Source of the DNA: Erythrobacteraceae bacterium
GTDB lineage: Bacteria; Pseudomonadota; Alphaproteobacteria; Sphingomonadales; Sphingomonadaceae
Assembly: GCA_027489095.1 (NCBI GenBank)
Contig: JAIYAL010000042.1
Location: forward strand, 8,153-72,152
Direction of reading: 5' to 3'
DNA: 64,000 bases
Shown here: positions 10,727-64,000 of the stretch, in pieces
Position numbering within the stretch: the stretch's first letter is position 1
Layout: every line of letters begins with the position of its first letter
Position numbers and translations under genes: made by a program
Notes under the pieces: generated by a model
Seen by the model: only the letters and a program-made list of their open reading frames with translations
Databases searched by the model: none
What the model was told of the DNA's origin: nothing

Positions 10727-10826
10727 ACGAGGCGTTTAGGCGGGGAAGGTCGAAAAGCAAGGCTGGAGGGTGACAGGCGGGTTTTGCCTGCTAAAAGCGC
10801 GGGCAAATTCCCCCAGGAGACATATC

Positions 10827-11288
10827 ATGGCCGAGACCCTTACCTTCACCCTCGACACCGGCGACGGCGAAGCCCGCGACGTCGTCATCAAGCTGCGCCC
10901 CGATCTGGCCCCCGGCCACGTCGCGCGCATCGCCGAGCTGGCGAGCGAAGGCTTCTATGATGGCGTGATCTTCCACCGCGTGATCGGCGGCTTCATGGCG
11001 CAGGGCGGCGATCCGACCGGCACCGGCATGGGCGGCAGCGACAAGCCTGATCTGGCGGCGGAATTCAACGCCGAACCGCACATCGAAGGCGTATGCTCGA
11101 TGGCGCGTTCGCAGAACCCCAACAGCGCCAATTCGCAGTTCTTCATCTGCCTTGATGACGCGCGCTTCCTCGACAAGCAGTACACCGTGTGGGGCCAGGT
11201 CACGAGCGGCATGGAACACGTCCACGCGCTGCCCAAGGGCGAACCGCCGCGTGCGCCCGGCAAGATCGTCAAGGCGACGGTGGCCTGA
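10827..11288 (+). CDS. Cyclophilin-type peptidyl-prolyl isomerase
   Basis: FYDGVIFHRVIGGFMAQGGDPTGTG and SMARSQNPNSANSQFFI; AGGAG RBS. Confidence 0.95.
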   Translation: MAETLTFTLDTGDGEARDVVIKLRPDLAPGHVARIAELASEGFYDGVIFHRVIGGFMAQGGDPTGTGMGGSDKPDLAAEFNAEPHIEGVCSMARSQNPNSANSQFFICLDDARFLDKQYTVWGQVTSGMEHVHALPKGEPPRAPGKIVKATVA

Positions 11289-11296
11289 TCGCCTTC

Positions 11297-11322
11297 TCCC
11301 CCTCCTCTTGCGAGGAGGGGGA
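11297..11322. repeat. REP-like palindrome / possible terminator hairpin
   Basis: Perfect 11-bp stem TCCCCCTCCTC-TTGC-GAGGAGGGGGA; a related palindrome lies at 53957-53981. Confidence 0.55.
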
Positions 11323-11414
11323 TGCGCGATTGACCCCGTCACCGGCGGGCCTACAGCGTTGTCACTCATGGCATCCTGCGCGCGCCCACAGACCTTCGCC
11401 GATTGCGGCTTACC

Positions 11415-12401
11415 GTGCGCCTGACCCTGCGCCCGCTCGTTCTGCTGCTCGGCCTCGCGCTTTCGGGCTGCGTCACCTTCCCCGATATCTCGCAATCGCG
11501 CTCGCCCTGCCAGCTTGAGCCGGGCGGATGGTGCGGCTTCCTGCGCGAGGCGGCGGTCGATGCCTTCCCCTATGCGCTGGCCTCGACCAATGCCTACACG
11601 GGCGACGAGGATCTGTTCGCAAAGCCGGGCCGCGTGTTGCAGCGCGTGGCCCATCTCCCCATTGCCGAGGCCGATGCCGACAAGGGCTTCGACTACCAGA
11701 TCTTCAACCAGTACGAGAGCGGCAAGGGCGCCGCTGCCGACCGCAAGCCCGTGGCGCGCATTCTCGCCTTTCGCGGCACGGACATGAAGAGCCTCGCCGA
11801 TATCTTCTACGGCACGCTGCGCGGTGATCAGATCGAATTGGCGCTGCGCTATTTCGAGGCGGAAAAGGCGCGGCTGGGGACGGATGTGCCGTGGATTGTC
11901 ACCGGCCATTCGCTGGGCGGCGCGCTGGCGACCGAGGTGTCGGTGGCTCATCCCGATGTGCGGGCCTATATGTTCAACACCTCGCCCTTCTACCGCAGCG
12001 AAGTGCGCGACAATGCGCTGCGGCGCACCGTCTTCAACGAGCGGGGCGAGCTTCTGCGCCGTTTCGCGCGGTTTGATGAGCCGCCCGCGGCGAATGTCTT
12101 CACGATCAATTGTGAACCGCGCAAAGGTGCCATCACCAAGCACAAGGTGCGCCCGCTGGCGGACTGCATCACCTGGATCGCCGCCTATGCGAGCGAAGAT
12201 GCGCTCCAGATCGTGAAGGCGAACGGCATACCTAAGCCTTTCGTCGAATGCGGGCCCGAAGACATGGTCCATCCCGGCCCCGGTTATCGCCCGACCGCGC
12301 CCTGCATCCAGAATGGCCTGCGCCGCGAAGCGAAGCCAAAAGGCAAGGACGACCAGAAGGGCAAGAGCAAGGACAGGGACGCGGACAGGAACGGGGGCTG
12401 A
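11415..12401 (+). CDS. Alpha/beta-hydrolase (class 3 lipase-like) lipoprotein
   Basis: Lipobox LALSGC, LAFRGT and nucleophile elbow GHSLGG. Start could be TTG 11403 or GTG 11415. Confidence 0.75.
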   Translation: MRLTLRPLVLLLGLALSGCVTFPDISQSRSPCQLEPGGWCGFLREAAVDAFPYALASTNAYTGDEDLFAKPGRVLQRVAHLPIAEADADKGFDYQIFNQYESGKGAAADRKPVARILAFRGTDMKSLADIFYGTLRGDQIELALRYFEAEKARLGTDVPWIVTGHSLGGALATEVSVAHPDVRAYMFNTSPFYRSEVRDNALRRTVFNERGELLRRFARFDEPPAANVFTINCEPRKGAITKHKVRPLADCITWIAAYASEDALQIVKANGIPKPFVECGPEDMVHPGPGYRPTAPCIQNGLRREAKPKGKDDQKGKSKDRDADRNGG

Positions 12402-12416
12402 CAGCGGGCTGCGTGT

Positions 12417-12504
12417 TTGACCCCGGCTCAGATCGCGCAGACCCCCACCTTGACCCCCTCTAGACCCCCCTTAGACCCCCTTTAGGGTCACTTCAGACCC
12501 TGCC
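12417..12504 (+). repeat. 11-bp-periodic GACCCC direct-repeat array, copy 1 (G-quadruplex motif on minus strand)
   Basis: Units TTGACCCCCTC/TAGACCCCCCT/TAGACCCCCTT/TAGGGTCACTT/CAGACCCTGCC at 12450-12504, plus looser units near 12417 and 12438. Confidence 0.9.
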
Positions 12505-12512
12505 AGATCCGA

Positions 12513-12528
12513 TGTTTCATGTGAAACA
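12513..12528. other. parS: parS-type centromere palindrome
   Basis: TGTTTCATGTGAAACA, one mismatch to the widespread chromosomal consensus TGTTTCACGTGAAACA; intergenic. Confidence 0.8.
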
Positions 12529-12584
12529 CTGGCATTCCGCAGCGATTGAACCGGGCTGCCATCGGCGCTACAGGCGCAGCCCTC

Positions 12585-13922
12585 ATGAAACCCGTCGCGC
12601 CTCCCCAGACCTACAGGGTCAAGAGCTTCGGCTGCCAGATGAACGTCTATGACGGCGAGCGGATGGCCGAGCTGCTGGGCGCGCGCGGGATCGTGCCCGC
12701 TCCCGAGGGAGAGGACGCCGATCTGGTCATCCTCAACACCTGCCATATCCGTGAAAAGGCAGCGGAAAAGGTCTATTCCGACATCGGCCGGCTGGTCTTT
12801 GCGGGCAAGCAGGCGGGCAAGCCGCCGCTGATCGCGGTGGCAGGCTGCGTCGCCCAGGCCGAGGGCGAGGAGATCATGAAGCGCGCCCCTGCGGTCAGCA
12901 TCGTGGTGGGCCCGCAGGCCTATCATCGCCTGCCGGAAATGCTTGAAAAGGCGGCAAAAGGTGAGCGTGCGACCGATACCGAGATGCCCGCGATCGCCAA
13001 GTTCGATGCGCTGCCAGCAAGGGCCAAACGCGGGCCCACCGCCTTCCTCACGGTGCAGGAAGGCTGCGACAAGTTCTGCACCTATTGCGTGGTGCCCTAT
13101 ACCCGCGGCGCGGAAATTGCGCGGCCTTTCAAAGGCCTGATCGCCGAAGCGGAGCGGCTGGTGGAGGCCGGCGCGAAGGAGATCATGCTGCTCGGCCAGA
13201 ACGTCAACGCCTGGGCCGGCGAGGACGACAAGGGCCGCCGGGTTGGACTGGCGGGCCTGATCCATACACTGGCGAAGATCGACGGGCTGGAGCGCATTCG
13301 CTACACCACCAGCCACCCCAATGACATGGAAGACGCCCTGATTGCCGCGCATGGCGAGGTGGACAAGCTGATGCCCTATCTGCACCTCCCCGTGCAGAGC
13401 GGCAGCGACCGGGTGCTGAAGGCCATGAACCGTCAGCACACCGCAGACAGCTATCTGAAAATCATCGAAAAATTCCGAGCCGTGCGGCCCGACATCGCGA
13501 TCGCAGGAGACTTCATCGTCGGCTTCCCGGGCGAGACCGAGGCCGAATTCGAGGACACGCTCAGGATCGTCGACGAAGTCCGCTACGCCGCGTGCTTCAG
13601 CTTCAAATATTCCCCTCGCCCCGGCACGCCCGCCGCGACGATGGAAAACCAGATCGCGCCCGAGGAGATGGCGAACCGTCTCCAACGGCTCCAGTCCCGC
13701 CTCGCCGAACAGCAGTATGCCTTCAATCAGGCGAGCGTGGGCAAGACCTGCAAGGTGCTGGTCGAACGCACCGGGCGGGACCCGGGCCAATGGCTCGGCA
13801 AGTCGCCGTGGCTCCAGAGCGTCCACTTCGAGGGCGACCATGCCATCGGCGATCTGGTCGAAGTGACCCTCGCCGAGGCGGGGCCGGTCTCGCTAAGGGG
13901 CGTGGTTCCCGCGCCCGTCTGA
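12585..13922 (+). CDS. miaB: tRNA-i(6)A37 methylthiotransferase
   Basis: SFGCQMNVYD, LNTCHIREKA, radical SAM CDKFCTYC, and a TRAM domain. Confidence 0.97.
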   Translation: MKPVAPPQTYRVKSFGCQMNVYDGERMAELLGARGIVPAPEGEDADLVILNTCHIREKAAEKVYSDIGRLVFAGKQAGKPPLIAVAGCVAQAEGEEIMKRAPAVSIVVGPQAYHRLPEMLEKAAKGERATDTEMPAIAKFDALPARAKRGPTAFLTVQEGCDKFCTYCVVPYTRGAEIARPFKGLIAEAERLVEAGAKEIMLLGQNVNAWAGEDDKGRRVGLAGLIHTLAKIDGLERIRYTTSHPNDMEDALIAAHGEVDKLMPYLHLPVQSGSDRVLKAMNRQHTADSYLKIIEKFRAVRPDIAIAGDFIVGFPGETEAEFEDTLRIVDEVRYAACFSFKYSPRPGTPAATMENQIAPEEMANRLQRLQSRLAEQQYAFNQASVGKTCKVLVERTGRDPGQWLGKSPWLQSVHFEGDHAIGDLVEVTLAEAGPVSLRGVVPAPV

Positions 13923-14968: not shown

Positions 14969-16012
14969 ATGGGCCGACGACCCTCCCGTGCCGGGCACCC
15001 GGCGCTCTCGCCTGATCCGCGCGGCATTCCAGCCCAGCGGCGCGCCCGCGTCGACCTGACCTTCGAGAACCAGGCCCTGCTGGGGCCATTGTTCGGGCAG
15101 TTCGATGCCAATCTGGTGCAGGTCGAAAACCGGCTCGGGGTGTTCATCCACGCGCGCGGCCATCAGGTGGTGATCGAGGGCCCAGAGGATGACGTCGGCC
15201 GCGCCCGCGAGACGCTCAAGACCATGTACGACCGGCTCGCTCGCGGCGAGGCGCTCGACAGTGGGGCCATCGAATCGATGATCGCCATGTCCGCCGAACC
15301 GACGCTCGAAGGGATCATCTCGGGCGACGAGGGCGCCCCGCCGATCATGATCCGCACGCGCAAGAAGACGATCGTGCCCCGCTCGGCGACGCAGATCGAG
15401 TATATGCGCAGCCTCGCTCGGGACGACATCATCTTCGCGCTCGGCCCGGCGGGGACGGGCAAGACCTATGTCGCGGTGGCGCAGGCGGTGAGCCAGCTCA
15501 TTACCGGCAGTGTGCAGCGCCTGATCCTCTCGCGCCCGGCGGTCGAGGCAGGGGAGAAACTCGGCTTCCTCCCTGGCGACATGAAGGAGAAGGTCGATCC
15601 CTATCTGCGCCCGCTCTATGACGCCTTGAACGACTGTATGCCGCCCGAACAGGTCGAGCGGCGGCTCGCCAACGGCGAGATCGAGATCGCGCCGATCGCC
15701 TTCATGCGCGGGCGCACGCTGGCCGACAGCTTCATCATCCTCGACGAAGCGCAGAACACCACCAAGGAACAGATGAAGATGTTCCTCACCCGCTTCGGCC
15801 AGAACAGCCGGATGGTGATCTGCGGCGATCCGCGGCAGGTTGACATCCCCGGCGGTCCGCGGATGAGCGGGCTGAATGATGCGGTCGAAAAGCTCGAGGG
15901 TATCGAGGGTTTCGGCACCACGCGCTTCACCGCCGCCGACGTGGTCCGCCACCCGATCGTGGGGCGGATTGTCGAGGCCTATGAGGGGAACGGTGAGGGC
16001 GAGGGCGTGTGA
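14969..16012 (+). CDS. phoH: PhoH-family ATPase
   Basis: GPAGTGKT, LSRPAVEAGEKLGFLPGD, FMRGRTL and DEAQN. Confidence 0.96.
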   Translation: MGRRPSRAGHPALSPDPRGIPAQRRARVDLTFENQALLGPLFGQFDANLVQVENRLGVFIHARGHQVVIEGPEDDVGRARETLKTMYDRLARGEALDSGAIESMIAMSAEPTLEGIISGDEGAPPIMIRTRKKTIVPRSATQIEYMRSLARDDIIFALGPAGTGKTYVAVAQAVSQLITGSVQRLILSRPAVEAGEKLGFLPGDMKEKVDPYLRPLYDALNDCMPPEQVERRLANGEIEIAPIAFMRGRTLADSFIILDEAQNTTKEQMKMFLTRFGQNSRMVICGDPRQVDIPGGPRMSGLNDAVEKLEGIEGFGTTRFTAADVVRHPIVGRIVEAYEGNGEGEGV

Positions 16013-17841
16013 GGCGCTTGCGATCGAAATTCTTCGGTTTTCTGCTCTTGGCACTGTTGCTGGGAAGCCCGGTTGCTGCCCAGGGCCAAACGGACCCAGG
16101 CGCGAACAAAGCTTCCGGCCAAAGCAGCGTTAAGGTTGATGAACTCGCCGAAGCCCGCACCCGTGCGCAGGAATTGGCTCAGCGCAACGCGATCCTGGAG
16201 GCCAAGGCCGAATTGTCGGATGCGGCCTATTCGCGGCTGGAGACTTTGATCGGGGCGTTTGGGGCGGTGATCACCGTTGTTGTGCTGTTCTTCGCCCTTC
16301 GCACCAAGAACGAAGCCATCGCAGAAGCCCGTAATGCTGCGGCCGAAGTCGCCAAGGCAGATGCCAAAACAGCGATCGATGCCGCGCAAACCCAGTTCGC
16401 GGCCTTGCTTGCGCAGGAACGCAGCAATGTCGCGGAAATCGAAGCGAAGCTGGAGGAGGCCCGACAATTTGTCGCTGCCATTTCCGGCCTGCAAGCCGAT
16501 GCCCTGAAAGGCAAGGAGGCGATTGAGGCCGATGCGAACCGGCTCGCTGAGCTGACAGCCCGGTTGGCGCAGGAGGCCAAGGAGGGCGGCAAGCCCGACT
16601 TGTCCGAAGACGACCGCGTGGTGCTCGAAAAGGCGAGCGAAGCCGCCAAGGATACGGCGCAGAACCAATGGACTGCCAGCCAGTTTCGCGCAGCGATCAG
16701 CAAGGCTCGGTTCGTCGATGAAGATTGGCCGCGCGTTTCGGAATTGGCCGAAGATATGGCGCGGGTGCATGGCGAGAACGACGAAGATTTCGCCTACGCC
16801 ATGAATTTATTGGGTGATGCCGCGCTGGAGCGGGGTGCCGTAGTCGAAGCAGAAACAGCCTATCGCCATGCGATTGATCGGTTGAAAGAGGCTGATTCTG
16901 CTGAACTTCGCCGCCTTCTCTTCTGGGCTCTGCATCATGCTGGCTACGCGCAAAGGAATGCTGGGCATCCGGATCTTGCCGAACCACTGTTGATTCAAGC
17001 GCGCGACCTTGCCGGCGATCTCTATGGCCCTGAAGCATCGAACACGCTGGTCACCCGCCATGAACTAGCCCGTGCGATGCGCGATCACGGTCGCGCCCCT
17101 GAGGCGGAGGCGGAATTGCGCGCGGTCCTGCCGCTCAGGGAAAAGGTCGATGGCCCTGAAGCATCACACACGCTGGTCATTCGCCACGATCTCGCCCGTG
17201 CGATGCTCGATCAAGGGCGCGCTGCTGAAGCAGAGGCAGAATTCCGCGCGATCCTGCCGCTAACAGAGAAAGTCGATGGCTCCGAGGCATCGGGCACGCT
17301 GAGCACCCGCCACGAATTGGCCCGCACCGTGCTCGATCAGGGGCGCGCTGCTGAGGCGGAGTCCGAACTGCGCACAATCCTGCCGCTCACGGAGGAGGTC
17401 GATGGCCCTGAAGCATCGGGCACGCTGAGCACCCGCCACGTACTGGCGTGCGCCATACTCGATCAGGAGCGCGCTGCTGAGGCGGAGGCAGAACTGCGTT
17501 TGATCCTGCCCCTGACGGAAAAGGTCGATGGCCCCGAAGCATCTGGCACACAAGTCACGCGCTATATGCTCGCCCTCGCGGTGCTCGAGAATGGCGATCC
17601 GGCTGGCGCGCAGGCTTTGCTGGAGGTCATCCCTGACCTGTCTGCACGTCCGGACTGGATACCGCGCCATGCTGCCCGTCTGGCCTACGTGCGCGGCAAG
17701 GTTGCTGATGCGCTAAGCCAGCGCAAGGCAGCCACCGCACACCTCATCGAAGCGCGGCGGATCTTTTCTGATTGTTTTCCAGAGGATCATCTCCATCGCC
17801 GCCAGCTGGAAGACTACATTATCCAGCGCGGCGGGCTGTAA
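16009..17841 (+). CDS. Membrane-anchored coiled-coil and 42-aa TPR-repeat protein
   Basis: Signal peptide, TM helix LIGAFGAVITVVVLFFAL, Ala/Glu-rich coiled coil, then five 42-aa repeats GPEASxTLxTRHxLA... Confidence 0.85.
   Translation: MRRLRSKFFGFLLLALLLGSPVAAQGQTDPGANKASGQSSVKVDELAEARTRAQELAQRNAILEAKAELSDAAYSRLETLIGAFGAVITVVVLFFALRTKNEAIAEARNAAAEVAKADAKTAIDAAQTQFAALLAQERSNVAEIEAKLEEARQFVAAISGLQADALKGKEAIEADANRLAELTARLAQEAKEGGKPDLSEDDRVVLEKASEAAKDTAQNQWTASQFRAAISKARFVDEDWPRVSELAEDMARVHGENDEDFAYAMNLLGDAALERGAVVEAETAYRHAIDRLKEADSAELRRLLFWALHHAGYAQRNAGHPDLAEPLLIQARDLAGDLYGPEASNTLVTRHELARAMRDHGRAPEAEAELRAVLPLREKVDGPEASHTLVIRHDLARAMLDQGRAAEAEAEFRAILPLTEKVDGSEASGTLSTRHELARTVLDQGRAAEAESELRTILPLTEEVDGPEASGTLSTRHVLACAILDQERAAEAEAELRLILPLTEKVDGPEASGTQVTRYMLALAVLENGDPAGAQALLEVIPDLSARPDWIPRHAARLAYVRGKVADALSQRKAATAHLIEARRIFSDCFPEDHLHRRQLEDYIIQRGGL
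17026..17580 (+). repeat. 126-bp intragenic tandem repeat encoding TPR units
   Basis: GGC(C/T)C(T/C)GA(A/G)GCATC unit starts at 17026, 17152, 17278, 17404 and 17530, an exact 126-bp period. Confidence 0.92.
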
Positions 17842-29414: not shown

Positions 29415-30695
29415 GTGCACCAAAGCGAGCGACTTACTGCCATCCCCGGTTCCGCTGAAGCGACCGATCTGGCCCCTGGCTTCCGCCATGTACGCGCGCT
29501 GACCGAGGCGCTGGTCGTTCCGCTCAGCGATGCCGATGCCTCGCTCCAGTCGATGGAGGATGCGAGCCCCGCCAAGTGGCACCTCGCCCACACCACTTGG
29601 TTCTGGGAAACCTTCCTGCTGCGCGAGCACGCGCCCGGATACCAGCTCCATGACGAGCGCTGGCCATATCTGTTCAATTCCTATTACGAGGCGCAAGGGC
29701 CGCGGATCTCGCGTGCCGCACGCGGGCTCCTGTCGCGCCCCAGCTTGCCCGAGGTGCTGGAATGGCGCGCGGTGGTCACCCAGGCGATGGAGCCGCTGCT
29801 GGGCGATCCGGCGCTCGCCGATCTGATTGCCTTGGGCATCGCGCACGAAGAGCAGCACATCGAGCTCCTCCTCACCGACATCAAGCACGCGCTGTTCCAG
29901 AACCCGCTGGGCCCGGCGATGTGGGAGCAAGCGGACGGGGTGGCGTCTGCCGCCGGGCGCGCAGGCCCGCTTGGCTGGCATAGGCACCCCGGCGGAATTG
30001 CGCTGGTCGGGCATCAGGCAGATGGCTTCGCCTTCGACAACGAGGGGCCGCGGCACCGCGTGTTGCTAGAGCCCTTCGCGCTCGCCGACCGGCTGGTTAC
30101 CAATGCCGAGTGGGAGGCCTTCATCGCCGACGGCGGCTATGCCGCGCCGCGTCTGTGGCTCGCGGACGGCTGGGCTTGGGTCCAGCGCGAGGGCATCGCC
30201 GCGCCGCTCTATTGGCGCGATGCCGAACACTTTACCCACCAAGGCTGGCGCCTTCGCGATCCCCATGCGCCCGTGACGCACATCTCGTTCTACGAGGCCG
30301 ATGCCTACGCCACCTGGGCAGGTGCGCGGCTGCCGACCGAGTTCGAATGGGAGGCGATCGCGCGCGGGCAGGACGGCGCCTCGCCTTGCCCCGCGCATGA
30401 TCCGCGCGGCGGCAACCAGCTCACTTGCGCAGGGCCGGTGCTGCCGATGGGATCGTCCGGGCTGTTCGGCGATTGCTGGCAATTCACCCGCTCGTCCTAT
30501 CTCCCCTATCCCGGCTTCCGCCCGGCAGCCGGCGCGGTGGGCGAGTACAATGGCAAGTTCATGAGCGGCCAGGTGGTGCTGCGCGGGGCATCCTGCGCAA
30601 CGGTGCGCGGGCACTCGCGCGCTTCGTACCGTAACTTCTTCTACCCCCATCAGCGCTGGCAGTTCACCGGGCTGCGCCTTGCCAAGGATTGTTGA
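29415..30695 (+). CDS. egtB: Ergothioneine sulfoxide synthase
   Basis: SPAKWHLAHTTWFWE, HEEQHIELL, FGE-sulfatase domain, and YNGKFM...YRNFFYPHQRWQFTGLRLA. Confidence 0.94.
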   Translation: MHQSERLTAIPGSAEATDLAPGFRHVRALTEALVVPLSDADASLQSMEDASPAKWHLAHTTWFWETFLLREHAPGYQLHDERWPYLFNSYYEAQGPRISRAARGLLSRPSLPEVLEWRAVVTQAMEPLLGDPALADLIALGIAHEEQHIELLLTDIKHALFQNPLGPAMWEQADGVASAAGRAGPLGWHRHPGGIALVGHQADGFAFDNEGPRHRVLLEPFALADRLVTNAEWEAFIADGGYAAPRLWLADGWAWVQREGIAAPLYWRDAEHFTHQGWRLRDPHAPVTHISFYEADAYATWAGARLPTEFEWEAIARGQDGASPCPAHDPRGGNQLTCAGPVLPMGSSGLFGDCWQFTRSSYLPYPGFRPAAGAVGEYNGKFMSGQVVLRGASCATVRGHSRASYRNFFYPHQRWQFTGLRLAKDC

Positions 30696-30696
30696 C

Positions 30697-31683
30697 ATGG
30701 CATTGACCAAGGGTCTGAAGCTGGTCCAGCGCGATGCGGGCGGCGTTGACCTTGCCTTCCGGGGCGACGTGCTCGCCGGGCTCGCCGAACCGCAGAAGGC
30801 GATCCCCGCGCGCTGGTTCTACGACGATGCGGGCTCGGCCCTGTTTGAGGATATCACCCAGCTCCCCGAATATTACCCGACCCGCGCCGAGACCGAGATC
30901 CTGAGCAGCCACTCGGGCGAAATCGCCGAGCTGATCGGCAAGGGGTGGGCGGTTGTCGAGTTCGGCTCGGGCTCCTCGGTCAAGACCCCGCTGTTGCTCT
31001 CGGCATGTCAGCCGAGTGCCTATGTCCCGCTCGACATCGCGGGGGACTTCCTGCGCGCCTCCTCGGCGACGCTGGCGGCGAAGTTTCCGGGCCTTCCCGT
31101 CTATCCGGTCGAGGCCGATTTCATGCGCCGGGTCGAGCTTCCCGGCGAGGTGGCCGATTTTCCCAAGCTCGGCTTCTTCCCCGGTTCGACGATCGGCAAC
31201 ATGATCGCCCGCACCGCGACCGACCTGTTGCGCTCGATGCGCGCGACATTGGGCGAGGGCGCGTTACTCTTGATCGGCATGGATCTCGTGAAGGACGAGG
31301 AGGTGCTGCTCGCCGCCTATGACGATGCGGCCGGGGTGACCGCGCGGTTCAACCTCAATCTTGCCTTGCGGATCAACCGCGAGCTTGCCGGCGACATCCC
31401 GCTCGAGAAACTGCGCCACGAGGCGCGCTGGAACGACATCTTCGCGCGCATCGAAATGCACCTCGTGGCCACCGACAACATCGCCTTCACCGTCAGCGGC
31501 ACGAATTTCGTGATGCGCAAGGGCGAGAGCATCCACACCGAAAACAGCCACAAGTTTACCAAGCGCTCCTCGCAGCTGCTGCTCGCCGCGGGCGGGTGGG
31601 AACCACGCGCGCGCTGGACCGACGAGGCCCGGCAATTCTCGCTGGTGCTGGCCGAGGCCGCGCGGCCGCGCTCGGCGCCCTGA
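30697..31683 (+). CDS. egtD: L-histidine N-alpha-methyltransferase
   Basis: WFYDDAGSALFEDITQLPEYYPTRAE, EFGSGSSVKT, FPGSTIGN and IHTENSHKF. Confidence 0.95.
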   Translation: MALTKGLKLVQRDAGGVDLAFRGDVLAGLAEPQKAIPARWFYDDAGSALFEDITQLPEYYPTRAETEILSSHSGEIAELIGKGWAVVEFGSGSSVKTPLLLSACQPSAYVPLDIAGDFLRASSATLAAKFPGLPVYPVEADFMRRVELPGEVADFPKLGFFPGSTIGNMIARTATDLLRSMRATLGEGALLLIGMDLVKDEEVLLAAYDDAAGVTARFNLNLALRINRELAGDIPLEKLRHEARWNDIFARIEMHLVATDNIAFTVSGTNFVMRKGESIHTENSHKFTKRSSQLLLAAGGWEPRARWTDEARQFSLVLAEAARPRSAP

Positions 31684-62980: not shown

Positions 62981-63352
62981 ATGCACCTCGCCCACGATCC
63001 CGCCGCGCCGCCTGCCGAGGCGATCACCTTCGACGACTTCTTAATGGTCGACATCCGGGCCGGGCGGATCATCCGTGCCGAGCCCTTTCCCGAAGCGCGC
63101 AAGCCCTCGCTCAAGCTCACCATCGATTTTGGCCCCGGCGTGGGGGTGAAGCGTTCCTCGGCGCAGATCGCGGAACTCTACGCGCCGGACGAGCTGGCGG
63201 GCCGGATGGTGGCGGCGGTGGTCAACTTCCCCCCGCGCCAGATCGGCACGTTCATGTCCGAGGTGCTGACGCTGGGCTTTCCCGATGATGCGGGGAGGGT
63301 GGTGCTGTTTGCGCCCGACAGCGCGGTGCCGCTTGGCGCAAGGCTGTTCTGA
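62981..63352 (+). CDS. csaA: tRNA-binding OB-fold protein CsaA
   Basis: VDIRAGRI, FPEARKPS and VNFPPRQIGTFMSEVLTLG. Confidence 0.92.
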   Translation: MHLAHDPAAPPAEAITFDDFLMVDIRAGRIIRAEPFPEARKPSLKLTIDFGPGVGVKRSSAQIAELYAPDELAGRMVAAVVNFPPRQIGTFMSEVLTLGFPDDAGRVVLFAPDSAVPLGARLF

Positions 63353-63392: not shown

Positions 63393-63458
63393 TTGTCCCC
63401 GCTTTGACCCCCTCCAGACCCCCCTTAGACCCCTGTTAGGCCCTCCCTAGACCCTCTC
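63393..63458 (+). repeat. 11-bp-periodic GACCCC direct-repeat array, copy 2 (G-quadruplex motif on minus strand)
   Basis: Six units at an exact 11-bp period: TTGTCCCCGCT/TTGACCCCCTC/CAGACCCCCCT/TAGACCCCTGT/TAGGCCCTCCC/TAGACCCTCTC. Confidence 0.92.
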
Positions 63459-63476
63459 TGGCGCGGCAAATTGCGA

Positions 63477-63492
63477 TGTTTCCCGTGAAACA
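63477..63492. other. parS: parS-type centromere palindrome
   Basis: TGTTTCCCGTGAAACA, one mismatch to TGTTTCACGTGAAACA; abuts the stop codon at 63493. Confidence 0.8.
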
Positions 63493-64000
63493 TTACGCCG
63501 CCGCCGGGATCGCCGGAACCGTGATCGTCCGTTCCCCGCCGAACTCCTCGCGCACCACGATCCGCCCCAACCGTTCCAGGTGGTCGAGCAACCGCCGCAC
63601 CCGGCTGGGGGAAGCGCTGCCGTAGAGGCGGCCCAGCTCCTCCTCGCCGGGCATGGGGCGGCCCATGTGAGCGGCGATGAGGATCGCGAGATAGGGGGCG
63701 AGCAGGTCCTCCTCGATGCCATCGGCGGCGGCGGCGATGGCGCTGCAAGAAGCCTCATCGATGCAGTCCAAACCACTGATGGAAAAGGCGAAAAGCCGCC
63801 GGAACCGGGCGAGGTCAACATGGGCGGAAGGGATGCCGCGCTGGCGGCAGAGCACCGCAAAGTCGCGGAACAGCGCGGCGGCGGGGCGGAAGGTGGCCCC
63901 CTCTGCCAGCCCAAGTTCACGCACCACGCCCTCAAGGTCGCCTGATGCGCCGGACGCAGCCGGAACGGGCGGCGCGGGCGGGGCGGGCGGGGCGGGAGGA
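63493..64000 (-). CDS. C-terminal part of a larger protein, probably a DUF87/HerA-like ATP-binding protein with winged-helix tail (5' end outside the window)
   Basis: Frame open to the window edge; Pro-rich linker, then YGSASPSRVRRLLDHLERLGRIVVR. The family assignment is from recall of this tail only. Confidence 0.55.
   Translation of the reverse strand, partial: PPAPPAPPAPPVPAASGASGDLEGVVRELGLAEGATFRPAAALFRDFAVLCRQRGIPSAHVDLARFRRLFAFSISGLDCIDEASCSAIAAAADGIEEDLLAPYLAILIAAHMGRPMPGEEELGRLYGSASPSRVRRLLDHLERLGRIVVREEFGGERTITVPAIPAAA

Follow-up and report, generated by a model that had tools for sequence, protein, structure and literature searches.

Chromosomal parS sites are treated as symmetric, free-standing and origin-near, and as recognised by ParB alone; the known sites reportedly cluster in the origin-proximal part of the chromosome (Lin & Grossman 1998; Livny et al. 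2007). The element described here shares with the chromosomal parS/ParB (Spo0J) system a palindrome that is conserved across species and is identical to, or within one mismatch of, TGTTTCACGTGAAACA, the ParB-site consensus (identical in Caulobacter, with N at position 5 in B. subtilis). In the clade studied here, parS is conserved at orthologous positions in relatives. While known chromosomal sites are described as standing alone, those of the clade come with a one-sided phased array and lie up to at least 1.14 Mb apart on a 3.09-Mb chromosome.

Arrays of short repeats are familiar from plasmid centromeres. R1 parC consists of ten 11-bp iterons, and type Ib, II and III centromeres are short direct repeats, one per helical turn, on which a cooperative filament forms. 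The element resembles R1 parC (bound by ParR), TubR-tubC and the omega heptads in its array of ~11-bp direct repeats; in those systems, however, the array is the centromere itself, lies beside the par operon and comes without a parS, and the motif is unrelated. No par genes and no parMR promoter were found beside the elements, which are flanked by miaB, csaA, DUF87, GGDEF-EAL and other genes. P1 parS (box A, box B and IHF) and RK2 KorB-KorA (OB by OA) are similar in combining a ParB-family site with a second motif at a fixed spacing, but they use other motifs and are single plasmid loci, whereas the array of the clade counts 3-6 units or more; nothing resembling an IHF or KorA site was recognised at the clade elements.

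In E. coli oriC, arrays of low-affinity DnaA sites (9-mer plus 2 bp) are nucleated from a strong box, and so offer a parallel of same-orientation sites with 11-bp spacing that extend from a strong anchor site (PMC4285127); unlike them, the clade elements are found at many loci and without an unwinding element. A DnaA-box cluster or W-box was rejected as an identity for the array, YYAGACCCC having no convincing match to TGATCCACA (the Caulobacter DnaA box) or to TCCCCA. ParB-family sites over much of the chromosome are also seen with Noc-NBS in Firmicutes and in P. aeruginosa, where ParB binds half-parS, 7-bp half sites (PMC5961200); in contrast to these half sites, and to Noc-NBS with its changed specificity, the clade sites are full canonical parS with an array. 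Finally, REP/BIME and BOX elements likewise occur in dozens of copies at gene 3' ends and in convergent gaps, and combine a palindrome with variable tandem modules. The clade palindrome, however, is the ParB consensus, the 11-bp modules are in register and the conservation points to selection; no link to a RAYT or transposase was seen for the clade elements. The one-sided phased 11-bp array (YYAGACCCC) beside parS is without a described equivalent in the searchable literature, in which we found no parS with phased flanking iterons and none on parS spread this widely; searches for parS in Sphingomonadales or Erythrobacter, for scattered parS and for the motif strings returned nothing relevant.

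Two copies of the element in the window

The window, by which we mean the whole 64-kb stretch of DNA that was analysed, has a GC content of 65-68% and includes several TonB-dependent receptors and egtBD among its genes; no dnaA, parAB or gid genes were found within it. As the preliminary description had stated, the same composite of array and parS occurs twice, at 12419-12528 (copy 1) and again close to the right end (copy 2). The two copies and their flanking genes are as follows.

11403-12401, plus strand: alpha/beta-hydrolase-like ORF, left flank of copy 1, with sub-threshold alpha/beta-hydrolase/lipase matches only
12419-12506, plus strand: copy 1 array, about eight units
12510-12528, plus strand: copy 1 CGA (12510-12512) and parS TGTTTCATGTGAAACA (12513-12528; C8>T)
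12585-13922, plus strand: miaB, right flank of copy 1, by Pfam, with a conserved leader between parS and ATG
62981-63352, plus strand: csaA-like tRNA-binding protein gene, left flank of copy 2, tRNA_bind by Pfam
63395-63460, plus strand: copy 2 array, six 11-bp units whose cores, 5'-AGACCCC-3', read towards parS
63461-63473, plus strand: copy 2 spacer, 13 nt, variable in sequence across the family and of a length that holds the array in register with parS
63474-63492, plus strand: copy 2 CGA (63474-63476) and 16-bp parS TGTTTCCCGTGAAACA (63477-63492)
63493-64000, minus strand: 3' end of a HerA/FtsK-superfamily (DUF87, PF01935) ATPase gene, right flank of copy 2

The units of copy 2 are, in order, GTCCCCGCTTT, GACCCCCTCCA, GACCCCCCTTA, GACCCCTGTTA, GGCCCTCCCTA and GACCCTCTCTG. 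Six units at an exact 11-bp period had been described for this array, and the G positions (63395, 63406, 63417, 63428, 63439 and 63450) agree with this, as does Tandem Repeats Finder (period 11, 5.3 copies, 63397-63454). Good units number just three, namely TTGACCCC (63404) and the two AGACCCC units that begin at 63416 and 63427; those at 63395, 63439 and 63450 are degenerate, and the phase of the array is +1 bp off the family mode. The distance from the end of the sixth unit to the CGA is 13 nt, not 21 nt as first described, and a CGA does stand immediately 5' of the palindrome in both copies. The parS of copy 2 has one mismatch (A7>C) against the consensus TGTTTCACGTGAAACA and directly abuts the stop codon of the minus-strand gene. 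Copy 1 has three perfect units (AGACCCC at 12439, 12462 and 12473) and an array in the canonical (modal) phase, with A at -18, -29, -40, -51 and -62. When aligned, the two copies share a ~52-bp near-identical core and are a 10-bp indel, about one unit, apart.

Both palindromes fit the 16-bp parS pattern TGTTNCACGTGAAACA with one mismatch each, and the only two parS sites of the window coincide with its only two arrays. Palindrome matches with up to three mismatches number 6 in the window against 0.18 expected from shuffles, and matches to a two-unit pattern number 8 against 1.8 expected, the exact ones all falling inside the two arrays; the composite of array and parS in the window far exceeds chance.

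The genes flanking the two copies are unrelated to each other, in line with what had been reported, and their names proved to be broadly right: miaB and the csaA-like gene were identified by Pfam and the HerA-like gene through orthologues (PF01935, DUF87), the 'lipase' alone being backed by sub-threshold matches only. The minus-strand ORF of the window shows 68% identity to the C-terminal end of a DUF87/HerA-FtsK-superfamily ATPase, 499 aa long, from Porphyrobacter sp. ULC335. The hydrolase-like ORF is not found at this position in other genera, and in both E. neustonensis and ULC335 a Pirin gene lies between the csaA-like gene and the element.

Extent and anatomy of the family

Genomes, one per species, were scanned with the pattern GACCCCNNNNAGACCCCNNNNAGACCCC, which matched at least 112 loci; parS was called at up to two mismatches. 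At least about 76 arrays belong to one clade of freshwater and marine bacteria, comprising Porphyrobacter, Erythrobacter (colymbi, dokdonensis, sp. WG, NE805) and Erythrobacteraceae/Sphingomonadales MAGs. Among the 115 pattern matches listed, 62 have a parS 39-93 bp downstream on the same strand, in 11-bp steps, and all of these are in the clade, while none of the about 39 listed matches outside it (other phyla) has one. Among the matches listed, parS is always 3' and never 5' of the array (62:0). Adding the two window copies, 64 of 64 parS carry an array, and by flank clustering these 64 composites fall at 42 or more different chromosomal sites, spread over at least 17 assemblies, with at least 11 composite sites in one MAG. 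The proposal that array and parS are kept together is borne out by the 62 of ~76 listed clade arrays that have parS in fixed orientation and phase. Thirteen of the clade arrays listed come without a parS, and a protein-anchored look-up revealed a sole exception of the opposite kind, the GGDEF-EAL site of Porphyrobacter sp. CACIAM 03H1, which has parS without an array; neither part thus strictly needs the other. A plasmid collection gave no match to the element, and the sequencing-run look-up for it yielded metagenomes only, no RNA.

Two assemblies of the scan deserve a comment. MAG La3_metabat2.028 (L002-L107) has contig coverages from 15x to 139x and may mix strains; its 11 composites are all at different loci. 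A MAG labelled Synechococcus sp. UW140 (CALRJK02; L030, L049, L084) has Porphyrobacter-type arrays with parS on contigs of up to 970 kb, and its CsaA is 86% identical to that of the window (P0038); this bin probably represents an Erythrobacteraceae genome that is either mislabelled or present as contamination. Similar arrays are sporadic outside the clade, as illustrated by a perfect (AGAGACCCCAG)x9 minisatellite in an unrelated alphaproteobacterial MAG (L008:2302-2395) and by five CAGACCCCG-type 11-bp units, without parS, in a Paracoccaceae MAG (L040:6814-6870).

The anatomy of the element was assessed on 42 non-orthologous arrays, each with 3-6 strong units. AGA precedes the C-run in 150 of 179 cases (84%) and is itself preceded by Y-Y, and unit spacing is exactly 11 in 108 of 137 (79%). 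All 166 of 166 AGACCC cores fall into three adjacent phases of 11 (chi-square p = 4e-26), and 25 of the 42 arrays have their nearest strong core at -29, give or take 1 bp; this fixed phase could partly reflect common descent together with whole-unit slippage. In a profile anchored on parS, AGACCCC peaks start at -51, -40 and -29, where C reaches 92-97%, and weaker units occupy -62 to -84 on the far side and -18 and -7 on the parS side. Since the cores are at -29, -40 and -51 (within 1 bp), the iterons lie on about one face of the helix and in register with the palindrome. The parS itself is often extended, in part, to CGA-parS-TCG, and the profile is flat past +18. Against TGTTTCACGTGAAACA, 32 of 64 parS in the family are perfect (16/16), the others having 1-2 mismatches.

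Most elements are located at gene 3' ends, often with a gene stop ~15 bp past parS; 25 are in convergent, 19 in tandem (11 co-directional, 8 antisense) and 3 in divergent context. No promoter or terminator was seen at the elements, and Rfam gave no match at gathering score in the whole window. Outside arrays, AGACCCC units standing singly show neither enrichment nor strand bias, and a KOPS-like dispersed word was rejected on these grounds. AGACC is also the EcoP1I type III restriction site; we judged this identity to be coincidental, as 9 of the 11 unit positions are constrained.

Conservation, polarity and chromosomal position

The preliminary description had proposed aligning the csaA-HerA and miaB-upstream regions across relatives. 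In 27 orthologous pairs of elements (ungapped identity), parS and cores are kept, and linkers, spacers and flanks are close to random: identity is 95% in parS, 76% in the cores, 43% in the linkers, 46% in the spacer and 38% downstream, compared to about 28-34% between unrelated copies. This pattern argues for purifying selection on both parts of the element. Homogenisation within arrays cannot account for a common core at 42 sites, because the linkers differ within arrays, and a sequence-specific reader would be the simplest explanation of the shared cores.

Close relatives have kept both copies of the window, so that the refuting condition named in the preliminary description, a lack of conservation in such relatives, does not apply. 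Copy 1 is at the same place in two of them (L004 and L070, syntenic at 77-92% DNA identity), one of which (L070) has the same parS variant as the window. Neither parS nor array was found at 80 miaB loci from other genera (541 kb, MiaB identity up to 87%); the conserved miaB leader identifies these as the same sites, empty. Two finished genomes, that of E. neustonensis (CP016033.1) and that of Porphyrobacter sp. ULC335 (CP078091.1), have copy 2 directly against the DUF87 stop codon, and the copy is absent from csaA loci without the DUF87 gene (E. oryzae, Erythromicrobium ramosum, Novosphingobium); this copy travels with the 3' end of DUF87 and not with csaA. A third site, at the 3' end of a GGDEF-EAL gene, has the composite in E. 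colymbi and E. neustonensis.

The interval between the PPIase gene and miaB (window 10770-12585, compared with L114, L115 and L113) is a variable spot in its own right. In other genera a terminator hairpin follows the PPIase gene and miaB comes directly after it; the lineage of the window has the hydrolase-like ORF and the element inserted, and L070 has a different gene there. At the GGDEF-EAL site, CACIAM 03H1 (CP021378.1) has kept its parS (L202:12206-12221) and the array is gone, a natural array-less allele that is useful experimentally; CACIAM 03H1, ULC335 and E. neustonensis DSM 9434 are all in culture and have finished genomes.

Substitutions within parS are unevenly distributed between its halves. 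Variants at positions 1, 7, 8 and 12 number 9, 6, 4 and 14, respectively, and those at the mirror positions 16, 10, 9 and 5 number 0, 0, 0 and 1; several are independent events within orthologous groups. Such asymmetry may be read as a sign of a trans-acting reader or a polar complex; it could instead come from gene conversion between copies. The copy 2 site of ULC335 provides a counter-example, as it carries a mirror variant: relative to the array, its palindrome (L194:11442-11457) is TGTTTCACGGGAAACA, the exact reverse complement of TGTTTCCCGTGAAACA in the window, and may owe its orientation to inversion or 'correction' through template switching. Units and parS also shift in concert within genomes. 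The base before AGACCC is C in 15 of 16 cases in E. colymbi and in 12 of 12 in Porphyrobacter bin-4, whereas four other genomes have T there. In parS, E. colymbi typically shows T1>C, and one MAG A12>G. These genome-wide concerted shifts, too, would be a sign of a trans-acting reader.

In terms of chromosomal position, the composites are not an origin cluster. It had been proposed that parS sites are dispersed around the origin region, but the two mapped composites of E. neustonensis (3,090,363 bp), at ~19 kb and ~1,970 kb, are in opposite orientation and 1.14 Mb apart the short way round the 3.09-Mb chromosome. Using ParB, ParA and DnaA sequences as queries, we found no parAB or dnaA in the window or at the ~76 listed element loci. 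The record CP016033.1 starts with glycosyltransferases, mfd, an Hsp70-family gene and folB; as it does not begin at dnaA, its coordinates are uninformative on oriC. In the long-read MAG MFD02832, six contigs carry arrays (five of them with parS, and one contig with two arrays), and the interior positions of these arrays force a span of at least 2.07 Mb, while the five copies of E. colymbi are split between two contigs of about 0.6-0.7 Mb.

The strand reading from array to parS may tend to be the G-rich one, both by raw GC skew (38:23 loci) and by a GC3-skew proxy (39:21), and 5 of 5 finished-genome loci are positive by skew; the proxy is very noisy, however, and changes sign from one 8-kb block of the window to another. 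Where a contig carries more than one copy, the copies always point the same way (5 contigs, about p = 0.016, one pair including an array-only locus), which is only suggestive as an orientation signal.

A proposed composite ParB site and alternative explanations

Our preferred reading, to which we give about an even chance, is that the element is a composite, polar ParB-binding site with an array bound by a sequence-specific factor. Such a site would be made up of a canonical 16-bp parS and, on one side only, 3-6 strong iterons of the form YYAGACCCC(C)nn, all reading towards parS. Host ParB would load at the palindrome, and the sequence-specific factor would line up head to tail along the iterons, which come once in each turn of the helix, in the way that ParR, phage O-type initiators and small terminases bind their own iterons. 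This factor could belong to the winged-helix or ribbon-helix-helix proteins, or ParB itself could provide an accessory surface for the purpose. We speculate that a one-sided filament beside ParB would break the symmetry of parS, and that it could hold or block ParB-CTP clamps, and cargo such as SMC, on one side; the result would be compact directional ParB complexes embedded between genes.

The clade keeps parS with a one-sided phased array far apart on the chromosome, and the halves of the palindrome evolve according to the side on which the array lies. If the array binds a partner, it would constitute a natural system in which the loading and sliding of ParB-CTP clamps, and SMC loading, are directional or confined; it would also help to explain what sets the limits of partition complexes, and would provide a case of ParB being used along the chromosome arms. 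As alphaproteobacteria couple the division-site regulator MipZ to ParB, the use of ParB along the arms would bear on division-site control.

A more far-reaching version of this composite site combines several claims: a lineage-specific factor reads oriented AGACCCC iterons, the sites are co-oriented per replichore, and together they form a wide set of polar loading sites. Taken jointly, we consider these claims to be quite improbable. The sites would then be polar loading sites for ParB (with SMC or a translocase), amounting to a KOPS-like orientation code built on parS in place of a single origin-proximal centromere, and one candidate for the factor would be the HerA/FtsK-superfamily ATPase whose gene abuts copy 2, since a hexamer would match the 3-6 strong units.

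The DUF87 gene abuts copy 2 in three genomes (window 63496-64000, minus strand; L193:11499-12998; L194:11458-12957). It encodes a soluble protein of 499 aa with a motor of ~260 aa, a Pro/Ala-rich linker of ~100 aa and a predicted C-terminal winged helix. The model of the C-terminal domain is of low confidence (pLDDT 60), and the top Foldseek matches, with E ~0.1, are all winged-helix DNA binders. The predicted layout would be FtsK-like, with a motor and a DNA-reading domain, and adjacency makes this ATPase a candidate array reader.

Turning to alternatives, the element might be a functionless repeat of modular, MITE-like build, either selfish or neutral and akin to BOX or REP, that carries parS by chance, spread through the ancestral genome and persists where it is harmless; we regard this as unlikely. 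It would accommodate the number of sites (at least 42), the restriction to one clade with orthologous sites empty elsewhere, the preference for convergent and 3'-end intergenic regions, the varying number of units and the existence of array-only and parS-only derivatives, and the co-orientation of same-contig copies is as in elements moved as single strands. What speaks against it is that half of the parS copies are perfect, that paralogous copies have only cores and parS in common, and that orthologues show the selection signature described above. Nor was any associated transposase seen: the parS-anchored profile, in which units decay gradually upstream and nothing is conserved past +18, gives no sign of terminal inverted repeats, and comparison of the element with empty orthologous sites, which is limited by divergence, gave no recognisable target duplication.

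A mobile origin is compatible with a composite ParB site, and it is only the claim of 'no function' that competes with it. The element is stable within the clade and absent in other genera, its copies being alike only in cores and parS. The dispersal of a ~100-bp non-autonomous unit, as proposed in the preliminary description, is plausible given the number of sites, their lineage restriction and the empty sites in other genera, although the copies are old and bear neither terminal inverted repeats nor target duplications. We believe that the family probably arose by a small modular repeat spreading in the clade ancestor, and that it was later held by selection.

Another possibility is that the array acts through DNA structure, with no dedicated protein: phased C/G tracts (A-form-like, ~11 bp per turn) would curve the DNA, or G-quadruplexes would fold, and either could shape ParB loading, SMC passage or replication near parS. 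A period of exactly 11 and a C-rich strand that is unstructured by itself would suit this idea. Both arrays are moreover among just four regions of the window with an absolute G4Hunter score of at least 1.5 (99.9th percentile), and their minus strands contain a canonical G-quadruplex motif (at least four G3+ runs, loops of 1-7 nt), which is a prediction only. We nonetheless give the idea little credence, as loop and linker positions should be free, whereas AGA precedes 84% of C-runs and is itself preceded by YY; the lineage-wide T/C shifts at one unit position, furthermore, resemble co-evolution with a reader.

The iterons might also derive from a phage machine, that is, the small terminase of a GTA or prophage (pac- or cosB-like) or a replication initiator, with parS as a passenger or modulator. 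In the lambda cosB-cosN region, a phased array on one side is separated by a gap from a site of two-fold symmetry, and the layout of the element is the same with the palindrome in place of cosN. In phage contigs matching the scan pattern, the iterons lie within genes for O-like or DnaD-like initiators or directly precede terS-terL; on three low-GC phage contigs, 11-bp arrays with a TAGACCCC core are located ~100 bp upstream of terS-terL. However, the viral arrays are heterogeneous and have only the imposed search pattern in common, and so represent analogy and not homology; a motif shared with them was rejected for the same heterogeneity. As no phage or GTA genes adjoin the chromosomal elements and the palindrome is exactly the ParB consensus, we find this origin very unlikely. 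The low-GC contigs (L203:3356-3384, L209:2791-2819 and L215:782-810; IMG/VR, 33-39% GC) have 3-5 TAGACCCC units in a divergent intergenic region, which may be a terminase recognition site (cos/pac) or a late-promoter array.

Lastly, a function in RNA, in which the C-rich, G-poor array would be a Rho utilisation (rut) site or a small RNA and shield parS from read-through, fits the composition (the array is unstructured over 45-70 nt, the hairpin of parS being the only fold in the element, and YC dimers recur at 11-nt intervals) and the usual position just after a gene end, but is extremely improbable and was rejected on orientation, which is unbiased in tandem context (11 co-directional vs 8 antisense) and antisense to transcription at the DUF87 site in finished genomes, there being also no Rfam match, promoter or terminator, and the register with parS and the conserved AGA being left unexplained.

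Two further features of the window were noted. An egtB-egtD pair for ergothioneine biosynthesis, with scores above the NCBIfam cut-offs, is located at 29415-31683. At 17024-17549 there is a 126-bp tandem repeat (4.2 copies, 81% identity) that sits in a TPR-like ORF of 610 aa (16009-17841; weak FxSxx_TPR match), the modules of which are duplicated at the DNA level.
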